From the NCBI GenBank assembly GCA_965225945.1, contig CBDDBZ010000024.1, positions 32,001-96,000 of the forward strand: a stretch of DNA of 64,000 nt, in the 5' to 3' direction. A program made the translations under genes and the position numbers. The DNA comes from Alphaproteobacteria bacterium (GTDB lineage: Bacteria > Pseudomonadota > Alphaproteobacteria > GCA-2731375). A model generated the notes under the pieces. That model was not told where the DNA came from and searched no databases. It saw nothing but the letters and a program-made list of their open reading frames with translations. This document shows, piece by piece, positions 42,808 through 60,450 of the stretch. Position 1 is the stretch's first letter. Each line of letters opens with the position of its first letter.

Positions 42808-43592
42808 ACGATACCCTCATGGGCCGTGCCCGGGCGCTCGGCCTGCACGGCCTCGCCGCCCACTGGGGCGAGGTCGCCGGGCATGACTGGCCCGCTGCGC
42901 TGGTCGCCTGGGAAGAGGAGGAACGGCGAAGCCGCAGCCTCAAGCGCCGCCTCGGCGACGCCCGCCTCGGACAGTTCAAGCCGCTCGCCGACTTCGACTG
43001 GGCATGGCCGCGCCGCTGCGACCGCATGGCCGTCGAGGATCTCATGAGCCTCGAGTTCCTCAACGAGGCCGCCAACGTCGTCCTGGTCGGCCCAAACGGC
43101 GTCGGCAAGTCGACCATCGCCGCCAATATCGCCCACCGCGCCGTCCTCGAGGGCCACACCGTGCGCTTCGCCACCGCGGCCAGCATGCTCGGCGAGCTCG
43201 CCGCCCTCGACAGCGACACCCTGCTTCAGCGCAGGCTGCGCTTCTACGCCCGCCAGCACCTGCTGGTGATCGACGAGGTCGGATACCTGTCCTACAGCAA
43301 CCGCCATGCCGATCTGCTGTTCAACATCGTCTCCAGCCGCAGCCAGCAGAACTCCACCATAATCACCACCAACCGGCCCTTCGCCGAGTGGGGTGAGGCC
43401 TTCCCCAACGCCGCCTGCCTCGTCGCCCTGGTCGACCGCCTCGTCCACAACGCCGAGATCATCGCCATCGACGCCGAGTCCTGGCGCCGCAAGGAGGCCG
43501 AGGAACGCCAGAAGCAGCGCAGCGCCGAGCGCCGCCGGCGGCGAGCCGGCAAGGCCGGCGCGCAGGACCGCGGGGAACCGCCGCCGGCGTAG
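42804..43592 (+). CDS. istB: IS21 helper AAA+ ATPase
   Basis: [22 protein letters not shown] and DRLVH motifs. Confidence 0.95.
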
Positions 43593-43594
43593 CC

Positions 43595-44491
43595 ATGGAT
43601 GGTCCCCGCCTCTGGGACCGGCGGGTGCGGGCCGAGGCCCTGCGAGGCTATCCCCTCGAAGACGTCGTCCGCCGCCTCGGCTACCGCCGCGATCCCACCG
43701 ATGCCGCGCGCTGGAGGCGTCCCGGATCCGTCGTCAGCATCAACGGCTTTATGTTCTACGAACATCTGCGCGGCGAGGGCGGGGGCGGAGCGATCGACCT
43801 GGTAATCCATGCCTGCCGGTGCACCGTGCCCGAGGCCCTCGGCTTCTTCTCGAAACTGCCGTGCCGTGACCGGTTCCCGGCCGATCGCCACCCGAAGCCG
43901 CCGTGCCCGGACCGCCACTGGCCCGCCATCCAGAGCTACCTCGTCGAGCAGCGCGGCCTCGCGGATGTGCTCGTCGCCCTGTGCCGCGACCTCGGCTTGC
44001 TCTACGCCGACCGCCACGGCAACGCCGTGTTCGTCCGCCGAAACGCGGCCGGCGAGGCTCTCGGCGCCGAGAGCGTCCCTGCCGCGGCGCCACGCCGCCT
44101 CGCGCCGACCGGCGCCGCCGCGCGCGGCGGCTTCTGGATGTCGTGGGAACCCGACTGGCCGAACTCCGTCATCCTCGCCAAGAACGCAATCGACGCCCTG
44201 TCGGTCCTCTCCCTCCACCTCGTCCCGGCCGGGCGCAAGGGATGCGCCGTGGTCTCAACCGGCGGCGCCACCGCAAGCCTCCCCGAATGGATCGAGGCCT
44301 GGAACCCCGGCCGGATCTTCTGCGCCTACGACGCCACCCGCCAGGGCGATGACGCCGCGGCACGGCTCATCCGAAACGACAGCAGGGTCGTCCGCCTGCG
44401 CCCTGCCCTCGACGGCCTGGACTGGAACGACATGCTCATGCGCGACCGCGCCGGCGAACCGCTCCAGATCGATGACCGGCCCCTCGACTGA
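43595..44491 (+). CDS. DUF3991/Toprim primase-like passenger with degenerate acidic motifs
   Basis: GGGAIDLV, YLVEQRGL, ADRHGNAVF, AKNAIDALS, CAYDAT and DWNDML motifs. Confidence 0.75.
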   Translation: MDGPRLWDRRVRAEALRGYPLEDVVRRLGYRRDPTDAARWRRPGSVVSINGFMFYEHLRGEGGGGAIDLVIHACRCTVPEALGFFSKLPCRDRFPADRHPKPPCPDRHWPAIQSYLVEQRGLADVLVALCRDLGLLYADRHGNAVFVRRNAAGEALGAESVPAAAPRRLAPTGAAARGGFWMSWEPDWPNSVILAKNAIDALSVLSLHLVPAGRKGCAVVSTGGATASLPEWIEAWNPGRIFCAYDATRQGDDAAARLIRNDSRVVRLRPALDGLDWNDMLMRDRAGEPLQIDDRPLD

Positions 44492-45223
44492 ATAGCCACA
44501 GCGCGAAACAAAATCAGCCAAGCCCAAAAGCATCCCGTCAGCCAACCGCCACCGACCGCTCAAAAAGAGCACCATATAAGCGCACCCTGGAACCACCGCT
44601 AACAGGCTCAGGTTGGCTGAACTCACCACCCGTTCCATCAGGTCTTGCGTCAAGGCTCGTTGCTGTTCCAACGCCGTGACCGCTTGTGGCTCCTCGCAGG
44701 GTCCAGTTCCGGTTCCGCCGTCACCGGAGGCCTCGGGGCGCAGCGTCTTCATCAGGGCCTCGTCAAAAAGGTCCAGTTGATAAACACCGCCTTGCCGCCG
44801 CTCCACGCTCATCGAGTTGATCCAGACTGCTCCTTGCTACTCGGATTCGGCCCTTCGGCGCCTCTCGGCCCCTACTATGGCCTCGGCTGACTTCTCCACC
44901 GCCATCGCTCCCCGTCGCCGGTTCGCTACTCGGATCGCCCGAGAGCGCTGGAGATCTCCCTGGGTAAGACGCTGATCTTTCCTCCGGTCGCGGCCGGATT
45001 TACCAATGCGACGTCCGAACGACTATCGGGCCTCGCCATCCATTGCTGGCTTACCCCATCGCACCGGCCTGATATCCGGTTTCTGTTCGTCCGCTCCAGA
45101 TTTTGCCTCCCGCTTCCTCCCCACCCCGCCTCGCGGCGACGCAGTTGCCTTCAGCTATCGGTTCCGGTCGTTACGGCCCGTAGAGAACTTCCATCTCCTA
45201 GATCAGCGCCATGCCAGGCACAC

Positions 45224-46341: not shown

Positions 46342-46445
46342 TTCTCCCCTCCCTCCCAATATAGGTCGAACTTTCAGGCTGACGAAAGCTCTGCTCGCGT
46401 CATCCAAAACAACGCTGCGAAGCAGGTATCGGTTGCAAAAATTTT

Positions 46446-47464
46446 GGCTCAATTCGTGAATTGTATGCATTAGTGATAGAGTGCCTGGAACGTCAGGAGG
46501 TTGGGTTATGGACGGCAAGGGTTTCCAGGTGTGGCTTTCGGCGGCGCGCGGGCTGACGCGCGCGCAGCGGCGCGAGGCGCTCGCGGTGCTGTCGGGCCGG
46601 AGCGAGGGCGAGGCATCGAAGGCCGCGATCGAGCTTGGTGTGGACGAGGCCCGGCGCTGTCCGCACTGCGCGAGCGAAGGGGCGGTTTCGCGCGGTATGG
46701 CGCGGGGTCTGCGGCGCTACCAGTGCAAGGGCTGCGGCAGGACCTTCAACGCGCTGAGCGGTACGCCGCTGTCGGGCTTGCACCACAAGGAACGCTGGCT
46801 GTCGTTCGGGGCGTCGCTGGCGAAGGGGGAGACGGTGAAGGCGTCGGCGGCGCGCTGCGACGTGGCGGTGAGCACGGCGTTCCGCTGGCGTCACCGGTTT
46901 CTGGCGGCGGCGCGGAGCGATTCGGAGGTGCTCAAGGGGATCGTGGAAGCGGACGAGACCTACGTCCTGGAGAGCCGGAAGGGCGCGCGCGGGCTGGGGC
47001 GCAAGGCACGGCGGCGGGGCGGCAAGGCGAAGAAGCGCGGCCTCTCGCGCGAGCAGGTACCGGTTCTCATGGCGGCGGACCAGAGCGGAACGACGGTCAG
47101 CGCGGTGCTGCCCAGGGTCGATGCGGCGGCGCTCACGGCTGCCCTCGACCCGGTGGTCGCGAAGGACGCCCTGCTGGTCTCCGACGGCGGCGCGAGCTAC
47201 CCACCGTGCGCCGCCGCGCTCGGGGTGAGCCACGAAGCACTCAACCGCTCGATGAACGTTCGGGGCGATCTGCATGTGCAGACGGTGAACAGCCGCCACA
47301 GCCGGTTGAAGGACTTCCTGCGTCCCCGCCGCGGCATCGCCACCCGCTATCTGGACAACTACCTGAGCTGGTTCCACCTCGTCGGCCTCGCCCCCGGCGC
47401 CAATGACCGAGCCTGCCTCGCCGCCGCCGTAACAAGGTGACGCATACAATTCACGAATTGAGCC
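46446..47464 (+). mobile_element. IS1595-family IS, second type (1019 bp); transposase 46508-47440
   Basis: 23-bp TIR GGCTCAATTCGTGAATTGTATGC; 8-bp TSD aaaatttt; CPHC/CKGC, VEADET, VSDG and GIATRYLDNYLSW motifs. Confidence 0.93.
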
Positions 47465-47632
47465 AAAATTTTTCGCAGCGACGCCCATAGCAAAGTCGAT
47501 GAATTCCCCGGAGTCAAGCCCGCCTCTCCGAGCGCCCAAAGGGGACCAAAGCAAAAGCGGTAGCCATGGAGATTGCGGTGGGCCGCGGAAATCGGCGAGC
47601 GAATTCCGGATCGACCGGCCGGTGGAATGAAT

Positions 47633-48275: not shown

Positions 48276-48332
48276 GGGAAAAGGCGCAGCGTGGGAAAAG
48301 ATCGCGGTAGGGACATGAGTTACCCCACGCCC

Positions 48333-48986
48333 TTCGCCGTAGGGACGCGGGTTACCCCGCGCCCCCGGCACAAAACCCGGCGTGCGGAACTACCGCACCG
48401 GGCTTCCACCTCGGATGTTTGACGGCAAAGCAACTTGCCGTACACGCTCCAGCCCCTGGGTCACGCTTACCCGGCTCGGTGTCCGGTACGTATCGGGTTG
48501 AACCATGTTCTCCTCGGCGCCTCCCCTTGGCTCCACCAACTCCGCCGTCGATTGTTCGACTTTGTTCGCCGGCTTCACGGCTACTATGGGAGGCTCAGAC
48601 TTCTGGCGGCCGTTCATCGCCGGCGACGCCCCCTTGGGGCTTCCCAGCACGACCCGAGCCCACCAAGCGGTCTCGGGTAGCCACCAGATCTCCCGGTTCC
48701 CTGACAAAGTGCGTATGCGCATGCCTGGGGTCTTGGACCACGCCGGGCCGGCAAACCGCTCGCGCTAACGCGGTGCGCCATGTTGTCTTCCCCATAACGG
48801 GAGAGGGTCGACACCCGGGACGACAGCTGTTTCACGGCTCGATATCCCAGCCTACGCACACCCCTACCGACGCTTCGCCGACACCCTCGCGGATGCCAAC
48901 GCACGGCTCGGAGGCCGATGTGGTTCGCTACTCCTTCATCGCAGAGGACTTGCACCTCCAACACCTTGCCGGTTTTTCCGGCGCAC
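48333..48986 (-). mobile_element. ORF-less group II intron Z (654 nt), nested in DVI of X
   Basis: GTGCGCCGG 5' end; RT deleted between ...QGLERVRQ and ...VKHPR; DV AAGCCCGGTGCG...CGCCGGGTTT; DVI ending CCCTACGGCGAA. Confidence 0.88.
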
Positions 48987-48992
48987 CCCGCA

Positions 48993-50911
48993 GTTACGGT
49001 AGGAATGCGCATTGCTGCGCACCCCCCGCGCAGATCCGGACGTGGTCGTTGAACCATCCGGCTCCTACCTCGGGTGCTTGACGGCAAACCGCTGGTCCGG
49101 CCATGGGTGGCGGATGGAGGCGCGTGGCCACAGGATTTCGGTCATGCGCTCCAGTCGCTTCCAACTAAATCGGGCTCGCTGGGACCGGCGGCGTAGCGCC
49201 CGCATCCACCGGCGTTGCAGCCTGCGGAGGAACGCACGGATGAACCGGCCTGACCCTGGGACGGCAAAGTAGTTGAGCCAGCCATTGCAGACTCGCCCCA
49301 GCCACCTACCAACTTCCCAGATGTCGTGGTGCCAGCGCTTGCGGAGCACCTCGTCGATGCGCGCCAGGGTCCTGTTGACCCGTTTGGCGACCGGTTTGCG
49401 ACCAAGCCGAAAGCGTCCTCTCAGGGTCGTCGTGCAATAGTGCGTGAGGCCCAGAAAGTCGAAAGTCTCCGGCTTGCCCACCCCGCGCTGGCGCCGGTTC
49501 AAATCCGCGAACCGGCCAAACTCCACGAGGCGGGTCTTGTCCTGGTGGAGGCTGAGACCGAACCGGGCCAGCCTCTCCCGAACGTCGCGGAGGTACCGCT
49601 CCGCATCCCGCTTGTGTTGGAACCCGACAACGATATCGTCAGCGTAACGGACGATGATCGCTTCGCCATCCGGGACGTTCGGGCGCCATTTCTTGTGGAA
49701 CCACAAGTCGAGCACGTAATGCAGGAACACGTTCGCCAAGACGGGGGAGACTATTGCCCCCTGCGGCGTGCCCATACCCGTATCTGCCCATGACCCACTC
49801 TCTATGACGCCGGCGTTCAGCCATTTCCGGATCAGACGGATGACCCGCCTGTCTCCGATGCGGTGCTCTAGGAACGTGATCAACCAATCCCGCGGGATCG
49901 TGTCGAAGTACGCCCGGAGGTCTGCATCGACTATCCAGCTGACCTTGCGCCGTTCTATCCCGAAGGCCAGGGCATCGAGCGCATCGTGCGCCCCCCGCCC
50001 CGGTCGGAACCCGTAGCTGAAGCCAAGAAACACCACCTCGTAGATCGGTGTCAGGATCACATCCACAACCGCCTTCTGGACGACCTTGTCCTCCAGCGCC
50101 GCGATCCCGAGCGGTCGTGTCCCCCCGTCCGGCTTGGGTATCTCTACCCGCCGAACCGGCGGCGCCCGGTACGCTCCCCCTCTGTGCAGGCGCCGGTGCA
50201 GGTCGAGCAGGCGCTCATCCAGACCCTCGCCGTACATGTCCCACGTAACGCCGTCGACACCGGCTGCTGCGTCCTTCTTCAATGCGAAGTAGGCCGCACC
50301 GAGCGCGTCCGGCGTAATGTGGTGGAAGAGCGCAGTGAGACGTTCCTTCGGGTTTCTCTCTGCAGCTTTCCGTATCCGGGCCGCCGCCTGTGGCACGCTT
50401 ACCCGACACTGTGTTCGGCGCGTGCTTTGGCAATCCGGATTCCCCTTGGTTGAGGCCCTTTCCTCCGGCGACTCCGCAGAAGCTCGCGCTCCCTTGTTCG
50501 CCGCCCTCACAGGTCGTACGGCCTCATCCGACTTCTTCAAACCGTTCATCATAGGCTTCGGTTTTCTCCATTCCCTACGCGGCCCCTTTACGACAACCGG
50601 GGCAGTTTGAAGACCTCCCAGGGTCCCAACAGAAGGCGTGCGAACGTGCATGGGTTCTCTGACACCGCGGGGCTCGCCGACATCTCACCAAAACGACGCC
50701 TGCGATATTGCCTTCGACCGATCTGAAAGCCTCGGCACCCCGGACCATCGCTTTTACGGTGCTCAATAGCCCTGCCCATCCATGCCGCTACCGACGCTTC
50801 GCCTGCCCCCTCACGGGAGCCAACGCACGGCTCGCGGAGAAACGTGGTTCGGTTACTCCTTCGTTCCGGGGGACTTGCACCCCCTACCTTCTGCCAGTTC
50901 GCCTGGCGCAC
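48993..50911 (-). mobile_element. Complete group II intron Y (1919 nt), nested right after DV of X
   Basis: GTGCGCCAGG 5' end; DV GAGCCGGATG...GTCCGGATCT; 3' end CCTACCGTAAC; EBS1 CAGATC (50720-50725) is complementary to IBS1 GATCTG (50912-50917). Confidence 0.92.
49065..50651 (-). CDS. ltrA: Intact group II intron RT/maturase without an endonuclease domain (start uncertain)
   Basis: LTALFHHI, IPKPDGGTRPLGI, SYGFRPGR, GTPQG, RYADD, FDFLG and RRRSQ motifs. Confidence 0.93.
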   Translation of the reverse strand: MHVRTPSVGTLGGLQTAPVVVKGPRREWRKPKPMMNGLKKSDEAVRPVRAANKGARASAESPEERASTKGNPDCQSTRRTQCRVSVPQAAARIRKAAERNPKERLTALFHHITPDALGAAYFALKKDAAAGVDGVTWDMYGEGLDERLLDLHRRLHRGGAYRAPPVRRVEIPKPDGGTRPLGIAALEDKVVQKAVVDVILTPIYEVVFLGFSYGFRPGRGAHDALDALAFGIERRKVSWIVDADLRAYFDTIPRDWLITFLEHRIGDRRVIRLIRKWLNAGVIESGSWADTGMGTPQGAIVSPVLANVFLHYVLDLWFHKKWRPNVPDGEAIIVRYADDIVVGFQHKRDAERYLRDVRERLARFGLSLHQDKTRLVEFGRFADLNRRQRGVGKPETFDFLGLTHYCTTTLRGRFRLGRKPVAKRVNRTLARIDEVLRKRWHHDIWEVGRWLGRVCNGWLNYFAVPGSGRFIRAFLRRLQRRWMRALRRRSQRARFSWKRLERMTEILWPRASIRHPWPDQRFAVKHPR

Positions 50912-51214
50912 CAGATCCCGGCGTGCACTGCTAATGCACCGGGCTCCTGCCTCGGGTATTTGACGTAGAAGCGTTTCGACGGCCAGGGATGGAGGATCGT
51001 CACTGGCGGAAGCCAGCGCTCGACCAGCTTGGCAAAGACCTTCCAGGTCGTGCGGTCGTTCTGGCTGCGGCGCCGGAGCGCTTTCAGCCATAGAACGAAA
51101 CCGCTTTCAGCGGTAGTTCGTGGTGCCGGGCGGTGAGGTCGGTGGCGTAACGGATGGGTCGATCCTGTGTTGAGGTTTGGAGTTCCGAAGCTCACGCAAC
51201 ACGGGAGCAGACCC

Positions 51215-52120
51215 ATGACCGATAGTGACAAGACCATCAGCCCGCTGCGCCAGCGCATGATCGACGACATGGTGCTTCGCGGCTTCAGTGCCAACACGCA
51301 GCGCGGCTACATCAGTGCGGTGGCCGGCTTTTCCGACTTTCTCGCACGCTCTCCGGATCGGGCGGAGGCGGAGGATCTCAGGCGCTATCAAGTGCATATG
51401 CGCAAAGCAGGCGCATCGGCGACGACGATGAACGCGGCGGTCTCGGCATTGCGGTTCTTCTTCGGCGTCACGCTCGGCCGAGGCGACGCCGAGATCGGCA
51501 TGACGACGGTGGCAATGCCGCGCAAGCTGCCGGTGATCCTGAGCGTCGAGGAAATGGCGCGGCTTCTCGATGCCGCCCCCGGTCCCAAATACAAGGCGGC
51601 CTTTTCGCTGGCCTATGGCGCCGGCCTGCGCGCTTCGGAGGTGGTCCATCTCAAGGTCCCGGACATCGACAGCAACCGCAAGACGCTTCGCATCGAGCAA
51701 GGTAAGGGCCGCCGAGATCGCTACGCCATGCTCTCGGATCGCGCCGTCGAGCAGCTCAGGGTCTGGTGGTTGCTTGGCCGCGCCCGCGGCGTGATGCTGC
51801 CCGGCGGTTGGCTGTTTCCAGGCCAGAACCCGGTCAACCCGTTGACCACCCGCCAGCTCCGTCGCGCCCTCGATGGCGCCAAGGCGGGGGCGGGGATCGA
51901 GAAGCGGATCTCGCTTCACACGCTGCGCCACTGCTTCGCCACCCATCTCCTCGAACAGGGCGTCGACATCCGCGTGATCCAGGTTCTACTGGGGCACAAG
52001 AAGCTGGAGACCACGGCTCACTACACCCAGGTCGCCAGCACCACCTTGCGGCGCGCCAAGAGCCCACTGGACCTGCTCGAGCCGCCGACGCCCAAGACCA
52101 AGCGCAAGCCGCCGAAGTGA
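51215..52120 (+). CDS. Tyrosine recombinase/integrase
   Basis: YGAGLRASE, GKG, HTLRHCFATHLLE and LLGH...TTAHY motifs. Confidence 0.93.
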   Translation: MTDSDKTISPLRQRMIDDMVLRGFSANTQRGYISAVAGFSDFLARSPDRAEAEDLRRYQVHMRKAGASATTMNAAVSALRFFFGVTLGRGDAEIGMTTVAMPRKLPVILSVEEMARLLDAAPGPKYKAAFSLAYGAGLRASEVVHLKVPDIDSNRKTLRIEQGKGRRDRYAMLSDRAVEQLRVWWLLGRARGVMLPGGWLFPGQNPVNPLTTRQLRRALDGAKAGAGIEKRISLHTLRHCFATHLLEQGVDIRVIQVLLGHKKLETTAHYTQVASTTLRRAKSPLDLLEPPTPKTKRKPPK

Positions 52121-52133
52121 GCCGGCGGCCTCG

Positions 52134-53348
52134 GTGCCGCGTCCCGCGCTCGAGGTCCAGGACATCTTCCGCGACCACGGGCCCGGCTTCCGTCGGGCCC
52201 GGGCCGGTCGTCTGAGCCTCGGCCAACTGAAGGTCATGTCGGCGATCGAGTGTTGCCGCACCGCCGCGCTCGGCGGTCATGTCGCGGCCTGCGAGGACTG
52301 CGGGCAGAACCACATCGCCTACAATTCCTGTCGCAACCGCCATTGTCCCAAATGCCAAGGCCAGGTCGCGCGCGAATGGCTGGCGGCGCGAGAGGCCGAA
52401 CTGCTCTCCGTCCCCTACTACCATCTCGTCTTCACCCTGCCAGCGGCGATCGCCGACATCGCCTATCAGAACAAGTCGGTGATCTACGATATCCTGTTCA
52501 AGGCGAGCGCCGAGACCATGCTCACCATCGCCGCCGATCCCAAGCATCTCGGCGCCAAGATCGGCATCACCGCCGTGCTCCACACCTGGGGCTCGGCCAT
52601 GACCCACCATCCCCACATCCACATGATCGTGCCGGGTGGCGGAATCTCACCTGACGGTAGCAGTTGGATCTCTTGCCGGCCCGGCTTCTTCCTGCCCGTC
52701 CGCGTGCTCTCGCGCCTCTTCCGCCGCCTCTTCATCGAGAAGCTCCTCGCCGCCCACGAGGCAGGGCGCCTGAAGTTCTTCACCGACCACACCAGCCTCG
52801 CCGAGCCGGCGGCCTTCCGTGTCTTCCTCGCACCGATGCGCAAACAAGAATGGGTCGTCTACGCCAAGCCGCCCTTCGGCGGACCAGAGGCCGTGCTCGC
52901 CTATCTCTCCCGCTACACCCACCGTGTCGCCATCTCGAACAGCCGCCTGGTCAGCTGCGACAGCCAAGGCGTCATCTTCAAGTACAAGGACTACCGGCGC
53001 AAAGGACGCGAGCGCTACAAGACCTTGCCCCTGGCCGTGCCCGAGTTCATCCGCCGCTTCCTCCTCCATGTCCTGCCCTCGGGCTTTCACCGCATCCGCC
53101 ATTACGGCCTCTTCGCCAACGGCGGTCGCACCCGCAACATCTCCCTTGCCCGCGAACTGCTTGCCATGCCGGCACCGGAGAGTGAGGCCGACGATGCCGC
53201 GAGTGACGATGATACCGAACCGCCGTCCCTCTCAGAGCCCTGCCCGCAGTGCGGCGGCCGTATGATCGTCATCGAGCGCTTCGAGGCCGGCGCCCAACCA
53301 CGCGCCCCGCCCCGTGCACGGCCCCTGGCCAGGGCCACGGCAGCATGA
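52134..53348 (+). CDS. IS91-family HUH transposase with a Zn-binding domain
   Basis: SCRNRHCPKCQ, HTWG...HPHIH, YLSRY and RIRHYG motifs. Confidence 0.93.
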   Translation: MPRPALEVQDIFRDHGPGFRRARAGRLSLGQLKVMSAIECCRTAALGGHVAACEDCGQNHIAYNSCRNRHCPKCQGQVAREWLAAREAELLSVPYYHLVFTLPAAIADIAYQNKSVIYDILFKASAETMLTIAADPKHLGAKIGITAVLHTWGSAMTHHPHIHMIVPGGGISPDGSSWISCRPGFFLPVRVLSRLFRRLFIEKLLAAHEAGRLKFFTDHTSLAEPAAFRVFLAPMRKQEWVVYAKPPFGGPEAVLAYLSRYTHRVAISNSRLVSCDSQGVIFKYKDYRRKGRERYKTLPLAVPEFIRRFLLHVLPSGFHRIRHYGLFANGGRTRNISLARELLAMPAPESEADDAASDDDTEPPSLSEPCPQCGGRMIVIERFEAGAQPRAPPRARPLARATAA

Positions 53349-54329
53349 CCGACACCGCTTCGAATAACGCTATTGCCGCCGCTCACCCGCGGCCACGATC
53401 CCGCTCGCCGCAACACCATCGAGCGCGCAGGGAACCACCTGCGAGACCCGCCGGCATCGACCCGAAGTCGCCATCAAACCACCCTGCCGGTGTCGTCGCC
53501 AATCAGATCCGAGCCATCCAGCAGCGCCGGCCACCCGAGAAAGCTGGCCCGCCGCTCGCAAATCCCCATAGACCGAGCGTGCCGCACCGCCGAGCCTAGT
53601 CCTGCCCGCGGTTTCCTCCCTTAAGCGTTGTCCGACACCTGCCGATCCAGTCCGCCGGATGCAACCCCTGCGCCTCGGCAGGTGTCCGACAACGCTTAAC
53701 AGAACCGGGCGACCTGATAGCGGAAGGCATTCAGGGCCGGAGCGTTGGTCGGCACGGCGAAGTACGCGAAGTAGCCTCGCACCACCGATGCCAGCCAGCG
53801 GCCCTGCTCGGCGATTGGCTGATGCCGTCGCCGGAGGAGTTCGCGCTTGATCTCCCCGAGCTTCGCCCCCATGCGCTTACGCCGCGTCTTGCGTCGCAGT
53901 TGGAACCGTCCCTTCCGGTCCTTCGCGCAGATGTGCGTGAAGCCCAGGAAGTCGAACGTCTCCGGCTTGCCGTCGCCTCGGCCCTTCCGACTTTTCGCGG
54001 CGTGCCGCCCAAACTCGATGAGCCGGGTTTTCTCCGCGAACAGCGCGAGGCCGAAAGCCCGCAAGCGTTCCTCCAATGCCGCCCGGAAGGCAAGCGCGTC
54101 TTCCCGGTACTCGAAGCCCACGACGAAGTCGTCCGCGTAGCGGACGATGACCATGTCGCAGTGGGTATGGCGCCGACGCCATTGGTGCGCCCACAAGTCC
54201 AGGACATAGTGCAGGTAGACGTTGGAGAGCAGCGGTGAGAGCACCGCGCCCTGTGGCGTCCCCTGCTCCGGGACCGTGAGTTTGCCATCTTGCATAATGC
54301 CGGCTTCTCTATCGCGTCCTCGGTCAAGC

Positions 54330-54600
54330 CCTTTCTGGTTACGTCATGCCATATTCCTTCTTCACGTCGTTCCGCACTGGCGGATGTTGCCGCACGGGGC
54401 TCTTGCTTCTCTTCGAGGTTGGCGCGTGGCCACCTCATGATGGGATCAGAGGATGAGGCGGTTCAATCTTTCGCGCGTCCTTGCCGCCGGTCAGCGGCAG
54501 GGTCTACCGACATTACGAACTCACCCCACCCGTCGTCCCCGTGAGGACATCTCTCTGCCTAAGCAGAACTCGTTGATCTCCTTGTCAGTACAGTCGAAGG
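54330..54600 (-). ncRNA. Putative bridge/seek RNA region of the IS1111-type element
   Basis: Downstream non-coding region with short matches to the target flanks and to the element's own ends. Confidence 0.6.
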
Positions 54601-54601
54601 T

Positions 54602-55654
54602 TCAATCCGCCTTGACGGCGTCAGCAGGGCCGTTGCTCCAGCGGAACTCGGTGCCGTCGACCCACATGCGGTGCAGAACTACGGCCAGGCGCCTCGCGAC
54701 GGCGACGATGGCACGGCGCATGCCACGTCGCTGGGCCACTCGCATGCCCCACGCCTTCAGCCAGGACCATTTCCGGCCGTGGGTGAGGAGGGACTGCGCG
54801 GCCTCGTACAGCATCGTGCGGAGCATGCTGTCGCCGCACTTGGACACGCAACCATCATAGTCGATCTCGCCGGACTGGAAGCGCTTCGGCGTCAGGCCGA
54901 CATGCGCGCCGACCGCCCTGGAGTGAACGAAGCGCTGCGGCTGATCGATGGTAGCCCGGTAGGTCAGCGCGACGACCACGCCGACGCCGGGTGCCGTCAT
55001 GAGCCGTCGGCAGACCGGGTCATGGCGGACCGTGTCGAGCACCATTTTGTGGAGGACCGCGAATTGCTGGCGCATCACTCGCCGGACGGTGAGCAGCGGT
55101 TCCACAATAGCGGCCAGCTTCGGAAAGTCTTCGACCAGCTCGCGGATCCGCGCCTCGTACCCGCGGGTGCTGACCGTGCCCACCTTGAGACCGAAGTTGC
55201 GCAGCGTCCCGCGTAGATCGTTCTCGACGTCGAGCAGTTTTCTCTGGAGCAGCTTGCGGCTGGTCAGCAGCATCCGCTGCTCCTGGGCAACCAGGGTCTT
55301 CACATGCACCGGCTTGAACAGCCCGACCCGCATCATCTGGGCGATGCCGCGCGCATCGTTGCGGTCGCTCTTGTTGATCTGCTGCCCCTTGAGCAGTGCT
55401 TTCATGTGCCGAGTCTCGACGCAGACAACCGGCAGCCCGGCGGCGGCAAGACCGTTGACCAGCCATTGCGAGAGCGGACCGGCTTCGATCCCGATCCGGC
55501 CATAGGCCACGCCGATCGAGGTCAGCAGCGTGACGATGTAGTCCGGCTCGGTCGGCACTTTCCGCTCCAACACCACCTCGCCAACCTCGTCGACGACGCA
55601 TACCGCCGTCTCCTTCACCGAAACATCCAGACCTACGAAATGTGCCATCGTCAT
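54602..55654 (-). CDS. IS110-family DEDD recombinase
   Basis: VGLDVS, GIEAG, KSDRNDARG, GLTP...QSG and AVARRLA motifs. Confidence 0.95.
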   Translation of the reverse strand: MTMAHFVGLDVSVKETAVCVVDEVGEVVLERKVPTEPDYIVTLLTSIGVAYGRIGIEAGPLSQWLVNGLAAAGLPVVCVETRHMKALLKGQQINKSDRNDARGIAQMMRVGLFKPVHVKTLVAQEQRMLLTSRKLLQRKLLDVENDLRGTLRNFGLKVGTVSTRGYEARIRELVEDFPKLAAIVEPLLTVRRVMRQQFAVLHKMVLDTVRHDPVCRRLMTAPGVGVVVALTYRATIDQPQRFVHSRAVGAHVGLTPKRFQSGEIDYDGCVSKCGDSMLRTMLYEAAQSLLTHGRKWSWLKAWGMRVAQRRGMRRAIVAVARRLAVVLHRMWVDGTEFRWSNGPADAVKAD

Positions 55655-56572
55655 CGCTCCTTCCTCGATGTTCGAGGTCAGGGCGACCCCGATTTATCGA
55701 TCATGCGTGAAGGGGCTGCCATCATCCTGATATCATCAGCCACAGCCGCCGCGATATACCATCTTTCAGCCACTTGGCCGTAAGGCGGAGGAGACGCCGA
55801 TCTCCGATCCGGTGCTCTAGGAACCCTCTCAGCCAGTTTTGGTCGGATGAGTCGAAGAAGCCGGATATATCGGCGTCCAGGATCCAGTTCACCTCGCGCT
55901 CGGTGATCGCCACCGCGAGCGCGTCCAGCGCGTCGTGCTGGTTGCGCCCCGGACGGAAGCCGTAGCTGAACCCGAGGAAATCTTCCTCGTAAATCTGGTT
56001 CAGCACCGTGCTCACGGCCATATGGGCGATCTTGTCCTCCAGGGCCGCGATCCCCAATGCCCGCGCCGAGCCGTCCGACTTCGCGATGAATTGTCGCCGG
56101 CTCGGCAGAGCCCGGTAGCCGCCCCGATGGAGCCGCCCATGCAGGTTCGGGAGACGCTGCTCCAGATCCTGGCCGTACTCTTGCCACGTCATGTCGTCCA
56201 CTCCGGGCGCCGCGTCGCGCTTCAGCGCCAGGTAGGAGGCCCGAAGGAGTTCGACATCGACATGGTGCAGCAGCGCGGTGAACTTTAGTTTCCCATCTCG
56301 TCTCGCCGCTTCTCGTACGCGCTCCAGCCCCTGTGACAGGCTTTCCCGACTCCGCGTCCGGCGCCTGCGTGTCAATCGGCGTTGAACATTGACCCCCTAT
56401 CGGCGTGCAATGTTGACCCCTTTGGGGATGCACGGCGGAGGTCGTACAGGTAGTCCATAGGAGGGGCCCGCGCGCGGGCCGACGCGCCCACCACGCGGCT
56501 GGCGGCGGACCGCGCGTGGGAGGTTCCTGTGGGCCCACCTGGGCGACCGGGCGGCAGGTGGATCGGTTGCCT

Positions 56573-57301
56573 TTAGGACCGATTCTTGAAGCGCCAGGAG
56601 TCGTTTCCGGTCTCGATGATCTCGCAGTGGTGCGTCAGACGATCGAGGAGCGCGGTGGTCATCTTGGCGTCGCCGAAGACGGACGGCCATTCGCCGAAGG
56701 TCAGGTTGGTGGTGACGATGATCGAGGTGCGCTCGTAGAGCCGGCTGACGAGGTGGAACAGCAGCTGGCCTCCGGTTTGGGCGAAGGGCAGGTAGCCGAG
56801 CTCGTCGAGGATGACGAGGTCGCGCCGGGCCAGCTGATCGGCGAGCCGGCCCTGGCGGCCGGCGCGGGCTTCGGCCTCGAGCCGGTTGACCAGGTCGACG
56901 ACGTTGAAGAAGCGGCCCCGGGCGCCATCGCGGATGCAGGCCCGCGCGATGGCGACGGCGAGATGGCTCTTGCCGGTGCCGGTGCCGCCGATCAGCACGG
57001 CGTTGCGCTGGTTGGCCAGGAAGCCGCCGACCGCCAACTCGCGGACCAGCGGCTCGTTGACCGGGGTGTCGGTGAAGTCGAAGTCGGCCAGCTCCTTGGC
57101 CAGCGGCAGCTTGGCGCCACTCATCTGGTACTTGATGGATCGCGCCTGCTTGTCGGCGATCTCGGCCTTCAACAGCTCGCCGATGATTCGCTGCATCGGA
57201 TGCTGGCGCTTGAGGCCGTCGGCGAGCACCTCGTCGAACGCGTCGCGCATGCCGGCGAGCTTGAGTGCGGCCATCATCTCCAGGACCTCATGGCGCTCCA
57301 T
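56573..57301 (-). CDS. istB: IS21 helper ATPase
   Basis: [19 protein letters not shown] and ALLDRLTHH motifs. Confidence 0.95.
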
Positions 57302-58799
57302 GGCCGACCCCCCTCAAGCGGTCGTAGCGGGTGCAATCGGCCACCGGCTCAAAGCGAAGACGCAGGTTCGCGGGCGTCGGGATCGGCGCCGTCTCGGACG
57401 GCTGGCGCCGACGATTGAGGATGTTGAGCACGACGTCGGCGCTGCACACGCCGCCAGCGAGCGCCTCGGCACAGGCGGCCTCCACCGCCGCCAGCCCATC
57501 CGCCAGCACGGCGGTGAGGATCTCGACCATCTGCCTGTCGCCGTCGTCGTGGCCGGCGAGCCGGACGCGCACGCGACCCAGGGCGCCGGGCAGCGCCCAG
57601 TCCTTGAACGGCGCGCCGTTACGAAGCGCACCGGGCTTCCTCGCCAGCACGGGCACGTAGTGCCACGGGTCATAGACGGTCTGGTCGCGGCCGAAGCGCC
57701 GGGCATGCTCGGCGACGATCTCGCCGTCCTGGCGGATGACGATGCGATCGGCGTAGGCATGGACCTCGACCGGACGGCCGACGGCGCGCGCCGCCACGCT
57801 GTACTTGTTGCTGTCGAAGCGCACCAGGCAGGTCTTCGACACCGACGCCGGGACCGCGTGGAAGCCGTCGAACGGCCCGCGATAGCCGACCAGGGACGGA
57901 CGCTCGTCCTCGAACACCTGCCAGACAGTCCTGTCCTTGAACACCGGGTGGGGATGACGCCGGGCGTAGGCGACGCACTGGTCCAAGAGCCAGGCGTTGA
58001 GTTCGTCGTAGGTCTTGAAGCGCAGCCGCGGGGTGAAGAACCGACCGCGGATGATCCCGACCTGGTTCTCGACCTGCCCCTTCTCCCATCCCGCTCCCGG
58101 CGTGCATGCTGTCGGTTCGACCAGGTAGTGGCCACACATCTGCACGAAGCGCCGGTTGAACGCGCGCTCCTTGCCGATGAGGACGGTCTGCACCGCCGTC
58201 TTCATGTTGTCGTAGATGCCTCGCCGGCAGGCACCCTGGAACAGCCGGAATGCCCGGTCGTGGGCGTCGAACACCATCTCCTGGCTCTCGCGCGGATAAG
58301 CGCGGACGAAGAACATTCGGCTGTGGCACAGCCGGACGTGCGCGACCTTGACCTTGGTCGTCACCCCCGCCAGCACCACGTACTCGTGGCTCCAGTCGAA
58401 CTGATAGGCCTCGCCCGGCGAGAACACCAACGGCACATAGGTCTGCGCCGTCGATGCCGAACGGCGCCACCGCCACGCCTTGGCGTAGCGCCGCACCGCG
58501 TCGTAGCCGCCGCCATAGCCCAGACCCTCGAGGGCTTCGGAGATCCGTAGCAGCGTCAGCCGCTCCCGCTTCGACTTGGTCTCGTTGGCCTCCAGCATCC
58601 GCTCCAGCTCGGCCGTCCACGGCCCCAGCTTCGGCATCGGCTGGACCCGCCGGTCGTAGGTGAACGCCGTCGCCTGCGAACGGATCACCTTGCGCACCGT
58701 GTTGCCCGAGACCTTCACGTCCCGCACGATCTCCTTGATCGGCTTCCCCTTGACGAAATACTCCCGCCGGATCCGCGCTATCGTCTCCACGACCAACAT
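57288..58799 (-). CDS. istA: IS21 transposase
   Basis: [18 protein letters not shown] and [10 protein letters not shown] motifs. Confidence 0.95.
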
Positions 58800-59420
58800 C
58801 CCCCACCACCTCGTCCGCCCAAAAACGAGGTGACTTGGACTAGCCAGGCTCAGGGGGTCAAATTTGGACGCCGATCACCCCTCAACAGGGGTCAACTTTG
58901 CACGCCGTTCCACACCTGCGTTGCTGACCCACGTTCCCCTTGGCTCCGCCCCTTCCCTCCACCGGCTCCGCCGCCTCGCACAAGGCTTTGTTCGTCGGCT
59001 TCCCAGGTACTATGGGCGAATCTGACTTCTCTCGAGCGTGCGTCATCGGCTACGGCCCTTCGGGCCTTCCCGATGCGGACCGCGCAAACGCAAGGACGGC
59101 CACTCGAGAGATCTCCCGGTTTCCGCTCAGGCGATTTCCATGCGTGCGTGGGCTCTACGACCGCGCAAGGCCCTCCGAGCGCTCGCCAATGCGCGCTCGT
59201 CGGTGTGGCCTTCCCCATAGACCCACAGGGTCGGCGCCTCGAATGCGCATTTTTTGCGGCTCAATACCCAGCCCACATGTACCCCTGTCAACGCTTCGCC
59301 TCGCCCTCGCGGACCGCAGGCGCATGACTCGGGGCCGGTGTGGATGGCTAACCCTTCACCGTACGGCTCTCTCATCCGCTACTCCTCGCCGGCGATACCG
59401 GCGCACGGGTCATTCTACTT

Positions 59421-60450
59421 CCTGATTACGCACTTCACTCAGCCGGGTTGATGTGGTACAAATCATGAACAAATGGCGGTTTTTCTGGAGGTTCACAATG
59501 CCACGCAACAACGTTCAGTTCCAGAAGGGGCTCAGCGAAGCGCGTTTTCGTGAGTTGTACGGTAGCGAGGAGCAGTGTCGCGAGGCCCTGTTCCGCTGGC
59601 GCTGGCCGGAGGGCTTCTCCTGCCCCCGATGCGGCGCCACGCGCCATTGCGAGATCGCCGGCCGCAAGCTCTACCAATGCGCCGCCTGCCGTCATCAAGT
59701 CTCGCTGACCGCCGGCACGCTCTTCCACGCGACCAAGCTGGCGCTGACCCTGTGGTTTTCGGCGATCTATCACATGACCCAATCGAAGAAGGGGATCTCC
59801 TCCATCGAACTCGGCCGCCGGCTCGGCGTCACCCAGACCACGGCCTGGAAGATCAAGCAGAAACTGATGCAGTCCATGCTCGAGCGCGATGCCAAATTGC
59901 CGCTCACCGGGCGGGTGGAGATGGACGATGCCTACCTCGGCGGCCGGCGTTCCGGGGCCAAGCGCGGCCGAGGCGCGCCGGGCAAGACGCCGTTCGTCGC
60001 CGCCGTCCAGACCACGGCGGAGGGCCAGCCCGTGCGCATCAAGCTCCGCCGCGTCAAGGGCTTCCGCAAGAGCGAGATCGCCAAGATGGCCAAGCGCGAC
60101 CTGAGCCCGCTGGCGACGGTTGTCAGCGATGGGCTCGGCTGCTTCACCGCGGTCACCGCGCAAGGCTGTGCGCACCATCCGATACCCACTGGCTCCGGAC
60201 CCGGGGCCGTCGCCGTGCCCGCCTTCAAATGGGTCAACACCACCCTCGGCAACCTCAAAAACACCCTGCGCGGTACCTACCATGCGATCCGACCCAAGCA
60301 TGTGCCGCGCTAACTGGCGGCGTTCCAGTACCGATACAACCGCCGCTACCGGCTCGCCGACATGATCGAAGCCCTCGGCCGCGATGCCCTGCGCACGCCG
60401 CCCATGCCATATCGGCTCCTGAAATTGGCTGAGGTTAGTGCGTAATCAGG
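59421..60450 (+). mobile_element. IS1595-family IS, copy 2; transposase (59498-60445) has a premature TAA at 60311
   Basis: Same TIRs as 1113-2142; 8-bp TSD ttctactt; TAC>TAA in PRY. Confidence 0.93.

Follow-up and report, generated by a model that had tools for sequence, protein, structure and literature searches.

A bacterial group II intron inserted at the domain V end of other group II introns and of its own copies

Spliceosomal introns and non-LTR retroelements are presumed to descend from group II introns, and a central question about the latter is how they proliferate without being lethal to the host. Introns residing in other introns (twintrons) are known, and in those of Euglena chloroplasts the internal introns are found in domain V (DV) or domain VI (DVI) of the external intron, where the inner intron breaks the catalytic 3′ domains and is, therefore, the first to be removed. 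The introns concerned are degenerate organellar ones located in essential genes, and we know of no guide-based recurrent targeting of the DV 3′ strand described for them. Here, a 64,000-nt stretch (hereafter, the window) of an alphaproteobacterial metagenome-assembled genome (MAG; GenBank assembly GCA_965225945.1, contig CBDDBZ010000024.1, positions 32,001 to 96,000) was analysed, in which two group II introns, Y and Z, are inserted into the DV/DVI junction of a third one, X. The analysis suggests that Y is, with high probability, an active RF02005-type intron without an endonuclease, the guide of which matches the DV end of its own intron class, and that Y has in this way become nested in X, in a second host intron (X2), and in itself.

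Nested arrays have been described in Methanosarcina acetivorans, in which up to five group II introns are nested by repeated site-specific homing (Dai and Zimmerly 2003, as quoted in PMC4424553 and PMC2882425). According to these sources, no coding exons surround the arrays, insertion is balanced by deletion through homologous recombination, and the arrangement was interpreted as a perpetual homing site. The system reported here is similar in the repeated homing of group II introns into group II introns and in their loss by recombination, but the Methanosarcina target lies in the open reading frame (ORF; domain IV) of related introns, whereas here it is the DV/DVI junction with the ORF intact, and the main target is the same intron, in an alphaproteobacterial MAG. 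In Thermosynechococcus elongatus, introns that lack an ORF and are mobilised in trans have a conserved site of related introns as their homing target, and the inner and outer introns move separately, which is seen as a route of proliferation (Mohr et al. 2010, PMC2882425); that site is located between two start codons in domain IV, and nesting is limited to one level, without self-insertion. An intron copy within a copy of the same intron, as found here, is also known from organelles: the lycophyte mitochondrial cox1i1149g2 was reported as 'invading itself' (Zumkeller et al. 2020, PMC7049729), and the complex twintron in petG of the euglenoid plastid of Eutreptiella is self-similar (PMC5572947). 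Both have one level of nesting, and in cox1i1149g2 the insertion is in domain IV, the inner copy is degenerate, and splicing was not seen; in the genome studied here, in contrast, the copies are near-identical, the ORFs are intact, and the tails record up to six levels. PMC4649490 also quotes selection for essential sites in twintrons and reports a spliced twintron of Trichodesmium. While twintrons as such are known, neither a bacterial intron nested in itself nor recurrent guide-based homing to the DV 3′ strand was found in the literature search, which was incomplete, so that an earlier description is possible. Intron-finding pipelines, according to PMC4028801 and PMC8919778, pass over nested copies, and arrays such as those reported below disrupt assemblies and defeat such pipelines.

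All of the elements of X, Y and Z are located on the minus strand of the window, the order in the 5′ to 3′ direction being the C-terminus of the intron-encoded protein (IEP) of X followed by X DV, Y, the hexanucleotide TGCGGG, Z, and the remainder of X DVI. The features are listed below (EBS1, exon-binding site 1; IBS1, intron-binding site 1).

48301..59406, minus strand: intron X, whole, 11,106 nt, with five foreign insertions; the 5′ exon ends with ...AGAATGACCC and the 3′ exon starts with CTTTT.
59220..59224, minus strand: EBS1 of X, GGGTC, complementary to the 5′ exon GACCC.
50912..51090, minus strand: remnant of the X IEP C-terminus and X DV (~50950..50912), which ends with ...GGGATCTG at 50912.
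50912..50917, minus strand: IBS1 of Y in X, GATCTG, the final six bases of the 3′ strand of X DV.
48993..50911, minus strand: intron Y, 1,919 nt, full length, endonuclease-less; starts with GTGCGCC and ends with ...CCTACCGTAAC.
50720..50725, minus strand: EBS1 of Y, CAGATC, in a hairpin loop (Y nt 187-192); pairs with GAUCUG at 6/6 positions.
49065..50552, minus strand: Y IEP, 495 amino acids plus stop codon; RVT_1 and GIIM, no endonuclease domain.
49031..49036, minus strand: GATCTG of Y itself (Y nt 1876-1881), which terminates its DV on the 3′ side; not occupied in the window copy.
48993..49030, minus strand: Y tail, 38 nt (nt 1882-1919: linker, DVI, 3′ end), the unit that is tandemly piled downstream of nested arrays elsewhere in the genome.
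48987..48992, minus strand: TGCGGG spacer of X, the DV-DVI linker and the start of the X DVI 5′ strand; GCGGG is the IBS1 of Z.
48333..48986, minus strand: intron Z, 654 nt, ORF-less; starts with GTGCGCC and ends with ...CTACGGCGAA.
48797..48801, minus strand: EBS1 of Z, CCCGT; pairs with GCGGG at 5/5 positions, one of them G-U.
48301..48332, minus strand: remainder of X DVI and the X 3′ end, 32 nt, with GNRA loop, 3′ strand and bulged A.

A first-pass annotation of this DNA had interpreted Y and Z as group II introns placed 6 nt apart in the DV-DVI junction of X, the removal of which rebuilds the 3′ end of X. The first statement agrees to the base with the layout given above and with the Rfam matches, and the second one with the fold of the rebuilt region and with uninterrupted relatives. 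RF02005 (group-II-D1D4-6; gathering score, 49 bits) matches the 5′ part of X at 59372-59151 (168.3 bits), Y at 50877-50653 (163.7 bits), and Z at 48952-48728 (168.9 bits), while the RF00029 (DV/DVI) matches at 48993-49066 and 48301-48407, with 35.4 and 32.5 bits, respectively, remain below the gathering score of 40 bits. Each of the three introns starts with GTGCG and has its 3′ end 7-8 nt past the bulged A. The DV/DVI region of X, rebuilt by coordinate-based joining of its three pieces (77 nt), folds at -42.3 kcal/mol into the canonical DV hairpin, which has a 2-nt bulge, and a DVI that is capped by a GNRA loop and in which a bulged UA lies 7-8 nt from the 3′ end. The rebuilt 3′ end of X aligns with that of Z without gaps (59/77 identical), and the contiguous GGATCTG plus TGCGGGGGG is present in the uninterrupted relatives L106 and L037. 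The removal of Y and Z restores a complete X, and Y nt 1-1881 joined to the tail makes up a full Y; the residence of Y and Z within X is a genuine intron-in-intron arrangement. Since the DV and DVI of the host are separated, the inner intron would have to leave before the host is able to splice.

Two observations concern DV itself. The G of the AGC triad normally faces U, but in the DV of both X and Y (50912-50950 and 49031-49066) it is opposite A, which is unusual; Z has a G-U. In addition, ViennaRNA favours a shifted register, in which the GAUCUG region pairs with bases upstream of the triad.

The putative EBS1 sequences of Y, Z and X are all found in the terminal loop of the same RF02005-consensus hairpin, and that of X pairs with GACCC at all five positions. 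For comparison with relatives, a search with the Y IEP yielded 80 loci in 51 assemblies; the 5′ ends of these introns were located with a profile built from Y, Z and X, and the loop region was then aligned. Among the 32 distinct exon/loop combinations from the window and the 80 loci, at least five consecutive pairs counted from exon position -1 were found in 19, and at least six in 17, versus 73/962 and 29/962, respectively, in the mismatched controls. Four of the 13 non-pairing combinations are head-to-tail intron junctions, where pairing is not expected, and the remaining ones have one internal mismatch or an uncertain boundary. Loop and exon covary (CGCATC/GATGCG, CAGACG/CGTCTG, CCGTCC/GGACGG, TCATTC/GAATGA, TAAGCG/CGCTTA, and CTCCAG/CTGGAG), and this covariation across relatives fixes the predicted EBS1-IBS1 guide loop. 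The complementarity of CAGAUC of Y to GATCTG and the pairing of CCCGU of Z with the (T)GCGGG spacer, both suggested in the first-pass annotation, are borne out by these comparisons, as is the expectation that the guides share one loop; the name Id3 given to that loop applies by analogy only. A search for a second pairing (EBS2/IBS2) in 14 non-intron 5′ exons revealed just a preference for G at -7 (10/14), and none is proposed.

The head-to-tail tandems, in which the 3′ end of one intron is followed by nt 1 of the next, occur at L037, L057, L059 (OZ220465) and L106 (Acidimicrobiaceae MAG), and comprise, among others, ORF-less units of 730 nt. The best explanation is that a 5′ exon already occupied was used again, which would mean a weak 3′-exon requirement and no target immunity.

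The 495-aa IEP of Y has Pfam matches to RVT_1 (E-value, 1.5e-36) and GIIM (E-value, 1.9e-4; 21.8 bits, slightly below the cut-off of 23). Its ORF ends with the maturase region, DV begins at the stop codon, and no D/En domain follows domain X of the protein. The genome contains 19 copies or fragments of Y, and the ORF is intact in 11 of them; based on these intact ORFs and on the near identity of the copies, Y looks like an active mobile retroelement. Its closest plasmid-borne relatives, from Ralstonia, Burkholderia and Cupriavidus, share ~55% identity. The IEP lineages that lack the endonuclease comprise the bacterial classes A, C, D, E, F, and g1-g4. An assignment of Y to class C (IIC) was considered and ruled out, because Y is of the RF02005 type, without RF02001 or RF01998 matches, and has an IBS1 of 6 bp, compared with 3-4 bp in class C, the introns of which have a compact ribozyme and insert after terminator or attC hairpins. 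Y resembles class C introns in the absence of the endonuclease domain, in the short IBS1-based target, and in insertion directly after a hairpin. The relatives at L105 and L108 are inserted at the 3′ foot of a hairpin, but, as judged by inspection, most of the non-intron targets of Y have none.

The presence of GATCTG in Y's own DV (49036..49031) had been noted correctly in the first-pass annotation, which overlooked its actual use: elsewhere in the genome this site is occupied by further Y copies, many times. A genome-wide scan for three marks, namely the initial 25 nt of Y, the 25 nt that precede nt 1881, and the tail of 38 nt, revealed 14 5′ ends, 18 DV ends and 27 tails, one of which is 36 nt and one 37 nt long. 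Eight direct self junctions, in which nt 1 of another Y comes immediately after the DV end (…GGATCTG), and 17 junctions of tail to tail were found. In total, Y is nested in its own DV/DVI junction at eight loci outside the window, and at least 19 self-insertions can be counted. The arrays follow the scheme [1-1881]n [1-1919] [38-nt tail]n and enclose no exon bases, a pattern that repeated insertion at Y's own GATCTG predicts. Since insertion takes place 34 nt downstream of the IEP stop codon, every layer keeps its reverse transcriptase (RT) gene. The arrays are listed below (C20, C24, C29, C31, C33-C35 and C37-C39 denote contigs of the window's own genome, G000, the one assembly from which self-nesting of Y is known).

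C38, 556-562 kb: four DV ends and four tails, in register and extending to the contig end.
C38, 142-146 kb: two DV ends or heads and six tails.
C33: two DV ends or heads and five tails.
C34: one DV end or head and three tails, within the second host intron X2.
C39: one DV end or head and three tails.
C35: one DV end or head and two tails, at a contig end.
C31: three heads, at a contig end.
C37: two heads, within another copy of X, followed by an IS21 element.

The arrays might be artefacts of assembling a repeat of 1.9 kb that is present in ~20 copies, single Y copies existing in reality. Three contigs do end inside arrays (C31, C35, and C38), and no such array was found in the other collections searched. 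Nevertheless, the breaks are located exactly at the predicted EBS1 target, the repeated unit is exactly nt 1882-1919, and no exon bases are enclosed, while tail variants of 36 and 37 nt occur and nested copies differ from one another by single-nucleotide polymorphisms (SNPs), indels and insertion sequence (IS) insertions. In C31, C33 and C37, SNPs are found between the outer and the inner copies; the inner copy of C37 has a 12-nt in-frame insertion; two nested neighbours of C31 (copies b and c) share two private variants (positions 219 and 611); and some outer copies are interrupted by IS elements. Judged by these sequence differences, the nested layers are distinct DNA and not duplicates made by the assembler, and an assembly artefact is considered highly improbable. 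As regards the interrupted outer copies, the cuts by IS elements are at C38:144739-146156 and at C38:146453 / C33:307776, and the same IS end (…CACATCAGGTTGCTCAATC) adjoins Y in two arrays, at nt 821 and nt 845, respectively.

The sequencing runs that contain the stretch are mostly sponge-associated metagenomes. In the DNA run X3, the k-mer depth of Y is ~121, compared with 4-8 in the flanks, and unitigs span the junctions of X with Y and of Y through the spacer to Z by 23-30 nt, the k-mer limit at the repeat; the junction of X2 DV with Y is also present. Contigs of RNA libraries cover most of Y, which is no proof of transcription, and nothing can be read from the parts of the stretch that lack RNA cover. 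In the Logan contigs, no joint that exactly skips Y or Z was found, and the self-nest junctions obtained no read-level confirmation there. A weak joint of 49041 to 50942 (side 20, with 18 other letters between) was taken for the DV of a related intron and not for splicing.

Tandem duplication or replication slippage, in place of intron insertion, could expand the 38-nt tandem units and would be compatible with the unequal numbers of heads and tails. Such processes leave unexplained why 5′ parts end precisely at nt 1881 and are followed by nt 1 (eight junctions), and why the unit is in phase with the 3′ end of the intron and with the target of EBS1; moreover, the counts are equal, four and four, in C38 at 556-562 kb. 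This origin of the arrays appears extremely improbable.

According to the explanation favoured here, namely guide-directed insertion of Y, the choice of target would be determined almost wholly by the six-base EBS1 CAGAUC acting on GAUCUG, or on GGUCUG through one G-U pair, with T mostly following the insertion point. GAUCUG is the conserved 3′ strand at the base of DV in Y's own intron class, and every related intron, Y included, therefore possesses a target just upstream of DVI. Y would retrohome into X, into X2 and, repeatedly, into resident Y copies, the insertion presumably proceeding by reverse splicing and reverse transcription. Each self-insertion would divide the host Y into nt 1-1881 and the 38-nt tail, giving rise to inside-out arrays; homologous recombination between the long 5′ direct repeats would later delete some of the former, and the tails would remain as a record of insertion.

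The distribution of Y in the genome is uneven. The genome holds 5,065 GATCTG and 3,620 GGTCTG sites, of which ~20 are intron DV ends, and yet DV ends have received at least 23 of the ~30 Y insertions. All three X copies that retain the DV region (C24, C37 and, by context, C33), as well as X2, carry Y. Only three non-intron insertions have a readable 5′ exon, and all of them follow GGTCTG: one in an IS3-type gene in C20, one in C34 at 328 kb, and the outermost copy in C31. The insertion point is followed by T (position +1) at 14 of those 21 non-self sites for which the 3′ exon could be read.

In other genomes, the picture is mixed. In a MAG with an identical (100%) IEP, all five copies of Y are found in ordinary DNA, after GATCTG (n = 4) or GAGCTG (n = 1). 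In the genome G028 of the same genus, six of the seven insertions (all six full copies) are in ordinary DNA after GATCTG-like hexamers, and the seventh, a fragment of Y, is located at the DV end of a 70% relative. Together, these two genomes have 11 of 12 Y insertions (11 full copies and one fragment) at ordinary GATCTG-type sites. On the other hand, in OZ253470 (IEP, 93% identical) Y is located at the DV end of an ORF-less X2-like host, and a scan for exact-pattern junctions revealed 36 loci in four assemblies: 33 in OZ220465, where the hosts belong to a single family, one in OZ219791 and one in OZ242200, both with DV-like hosts, and one further locus that is not DV-like. In a fifth lineage (L075 and L076), an unrelated 832-nt ORF-less RF02005-type intron is inserted at the same GGGATCTG/TGCGGGGGG point and carries an 8-nt guide-like CAGATCCC, complementary to eight target bases. 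By these sequence matches, introns have landed at the DV end repeatedly, and it is occupied in at least four other assemblies. The first-pass proposal of intron-targeting introns can be retained in so far as the DV end is targeted recurrently, but Y is not dedicated to introns, the survey of its homologues having placed most insertions in the close relatives outside them, which goes part of the way towards the outcome that the first-pass annotation had named as a refutation.

At the OZ220465 loci (L115-L150), a single host intron family is dispersed in 33 copies, all of which contain a Y relative at the DV end. Some of the inner copies have EBS1 CCGATC, and the DV of one host ends with GATCGG; this change of guide and target possibly reflects an arms race or the joint spread of the composite.

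The insertions in relatives bear on a further explanation, in which the DV end is an incidental landing pad: Y would have hexamer specificity only, insertions in introns or in Y would be free of cost, and those in genes would be purged. This would agree with the location outside introns of 5/5 copies in the MAG with the identical IEP and 6/7 in G028, with the lack of conserved sequence upstream of -7 at non-intron sites, and with the nature of the region, which is a graveyard of mobile DNA. The numbers fit less well, given that ~8,700 hexamers are available compared with ~20 DV ends and most insertions are nevertheless at DV ends. Purging would have to remove more than 99% of the insertions, although those on the sense strand can splice out and non-coding DNA is available. 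Independent lineages (the inner intron of L075, and Z) have converged on the same 15-nt stretch, and 33 host DV ends are occupied in OZ220465. An incidental pad is regarded as doubtful, although it deserves consideration.

Several observations also weigh against the guide-directed self-nesting proposed above. The junction of tail to tail had no matches in genome_contigs and none in metagenome_contigs. G028 (six full copies) and the MAG with the identical IEP (five copies) have un-nested Y only, despite the same Y DV end, and OZ220465, with 33 junctions of host DV with a Y relative, has no self-nesting. No private change of the Y ribozyme that could explain self-nesting was found in this genome. 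The self target has C at +1, a base found at 0/21 non-self sites, compared with T at 14/21. Finally, heads and tails are unequal in number in most arrays, and recombination must be assumed in addition. Since DV ends are over-used relative to the hexamer count and the self site has C at +1, something beyond base pairing appears to favour the DV context; the candidates are a ribonucleoprotein (RNP) that acts near its own gene, a DNA hairpin, and neutral retention. We infer that the excess at DV sites combines a real preference, through local (cis) action or target structure, with neutral retention in dead DNA.

A more far-reaching version holds that GGAUCUG UGCGGGGGG, i.e., the DV 3′ strand and the start of DVI, is a class-wide landing pad on which several lineages of introns have converged independently, and that the self-nesting of Y is coupled in cis. 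The RNP would form during transcription of its own gene and reverse-splice into the DV/DVI of that very copy; with an intact RT gene in every layer, the array would raise the RT dosage, and orphan 38-nt tails would act as a molecular counter of past events. This version is put forward tentatively, as possible but unlikely; if true, the landing pad would constitute a network of intron-on-intron parasitism.

Under guide-directed insertion, a guide that matches the most conserved helix of its own class would turn other introns and the intron itself into renewable, harmless targets, and the arrays would be a readable history of insertion and recombination. They may also serve as a test bed for cis preference in retrohoming, for structured DNA targets of endonuclease-less introns, and for the depth of nesting that can still be unpacked by sequential splicing.

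Intron Z retains ~60 N-terminal and the last few codons of the IEP, the middle part being deleted. Having no ORF, it would need mobilisation in trans, and it would use the next conserved stretch, 6 bases downstream of the Y site, through CCCGU. Two copies are present in the genome, both at the same place in X DVI; the 32 nt of X DVI after them are identical, whereas the 3′ exons differ. The second copy is in C33. A search of 32 further genomes of the order (E <= 1e-20) did not detect Z, and its target preference therefore rests on two copies from one genome. The second copy (C33:304600-304680) lacks the first 19 nt, and its nt 43-51 are replaced by 32 nt that equal the junction between two consecutive Y tails, an apparent microhomology-type rearrangement.

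A reading of X as a mere 3′ fragment was rejected, as the 5′ part at 59406 and co-linear copies reveal a whole intron; apart from large insertions, X is co-linear with its copies in C29 and C37. The RT domain of X is present as two RVT_1 halves (56375..55722 and 54295..53696), and its IEP gene is broken by three insertion sequences:

56371..58914, minus strand: IS21-family element in the X IEP gene (istA, 58799..57288; istB, 57301..56573; Pfam rve, Mu-transpos_C_2 and IstB_IS21), bounds from the comparison with C29.
~54270..55760, minus strand: IS110-family element in the X RT domain (transposase, 55654..54602; Pfam DEDD_Tnp_IS110 and Transposase_20), bounds approximate; its position is also a gap in the homology to Y.
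51091..53699, plus strand: IS91-type element, dividing the maturase region of X (tyrosine integrase, 51167..52120; Y2/IS91 transposase, 52134..53348; Pfam Phage_integrase, Y2_Tnp and Zn_Tnp_IS91), bounds by comparison of X copies.

X is, consequently, a dead intron. The earlier suggestion that X could splice only after the removal of Y and Z is moot here, because with the IEP gene destroyed by the IS21, IS110 and IS91-type elements, ordered splicing of X carries no functional weight.

An IS110-type element is found at the same point of the RT gene in the X copies of C29, C37 and the window, while the 5′ exon of the C37 copy differs from those of C24 and C29. Either X moved in trans with the IS inside, or an IS carrying it moved. 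At C33:303800-303900, two empty X homing sites (…AGAATGACCC followed by CTTTT) are found in inverted orientation ~100 nt downstream of the occupied one, and the target of X appears to be the terminal repeats of an IS. The 5′ exon of X is adjoined by an IS1595-type transposase gene (59453..60313), to which a small IS at 46400-47480 is related; the latter contains a 319-aa ORF (46481..47440, plus strand) and has inverted repeats (…GCAAAAATTTTGGCTCAATTCGTGAATTGTATGC and its complement).

A second group II intron of the window is located at 44850-45140 on the minus strand, with matches to RF02001 (133 bits) and RF01998 (51 bits), a combination that we take to indicate class C. Its IEP is seemingly split into two ORFs (44255..44812 and 43292..44218, minus strand).

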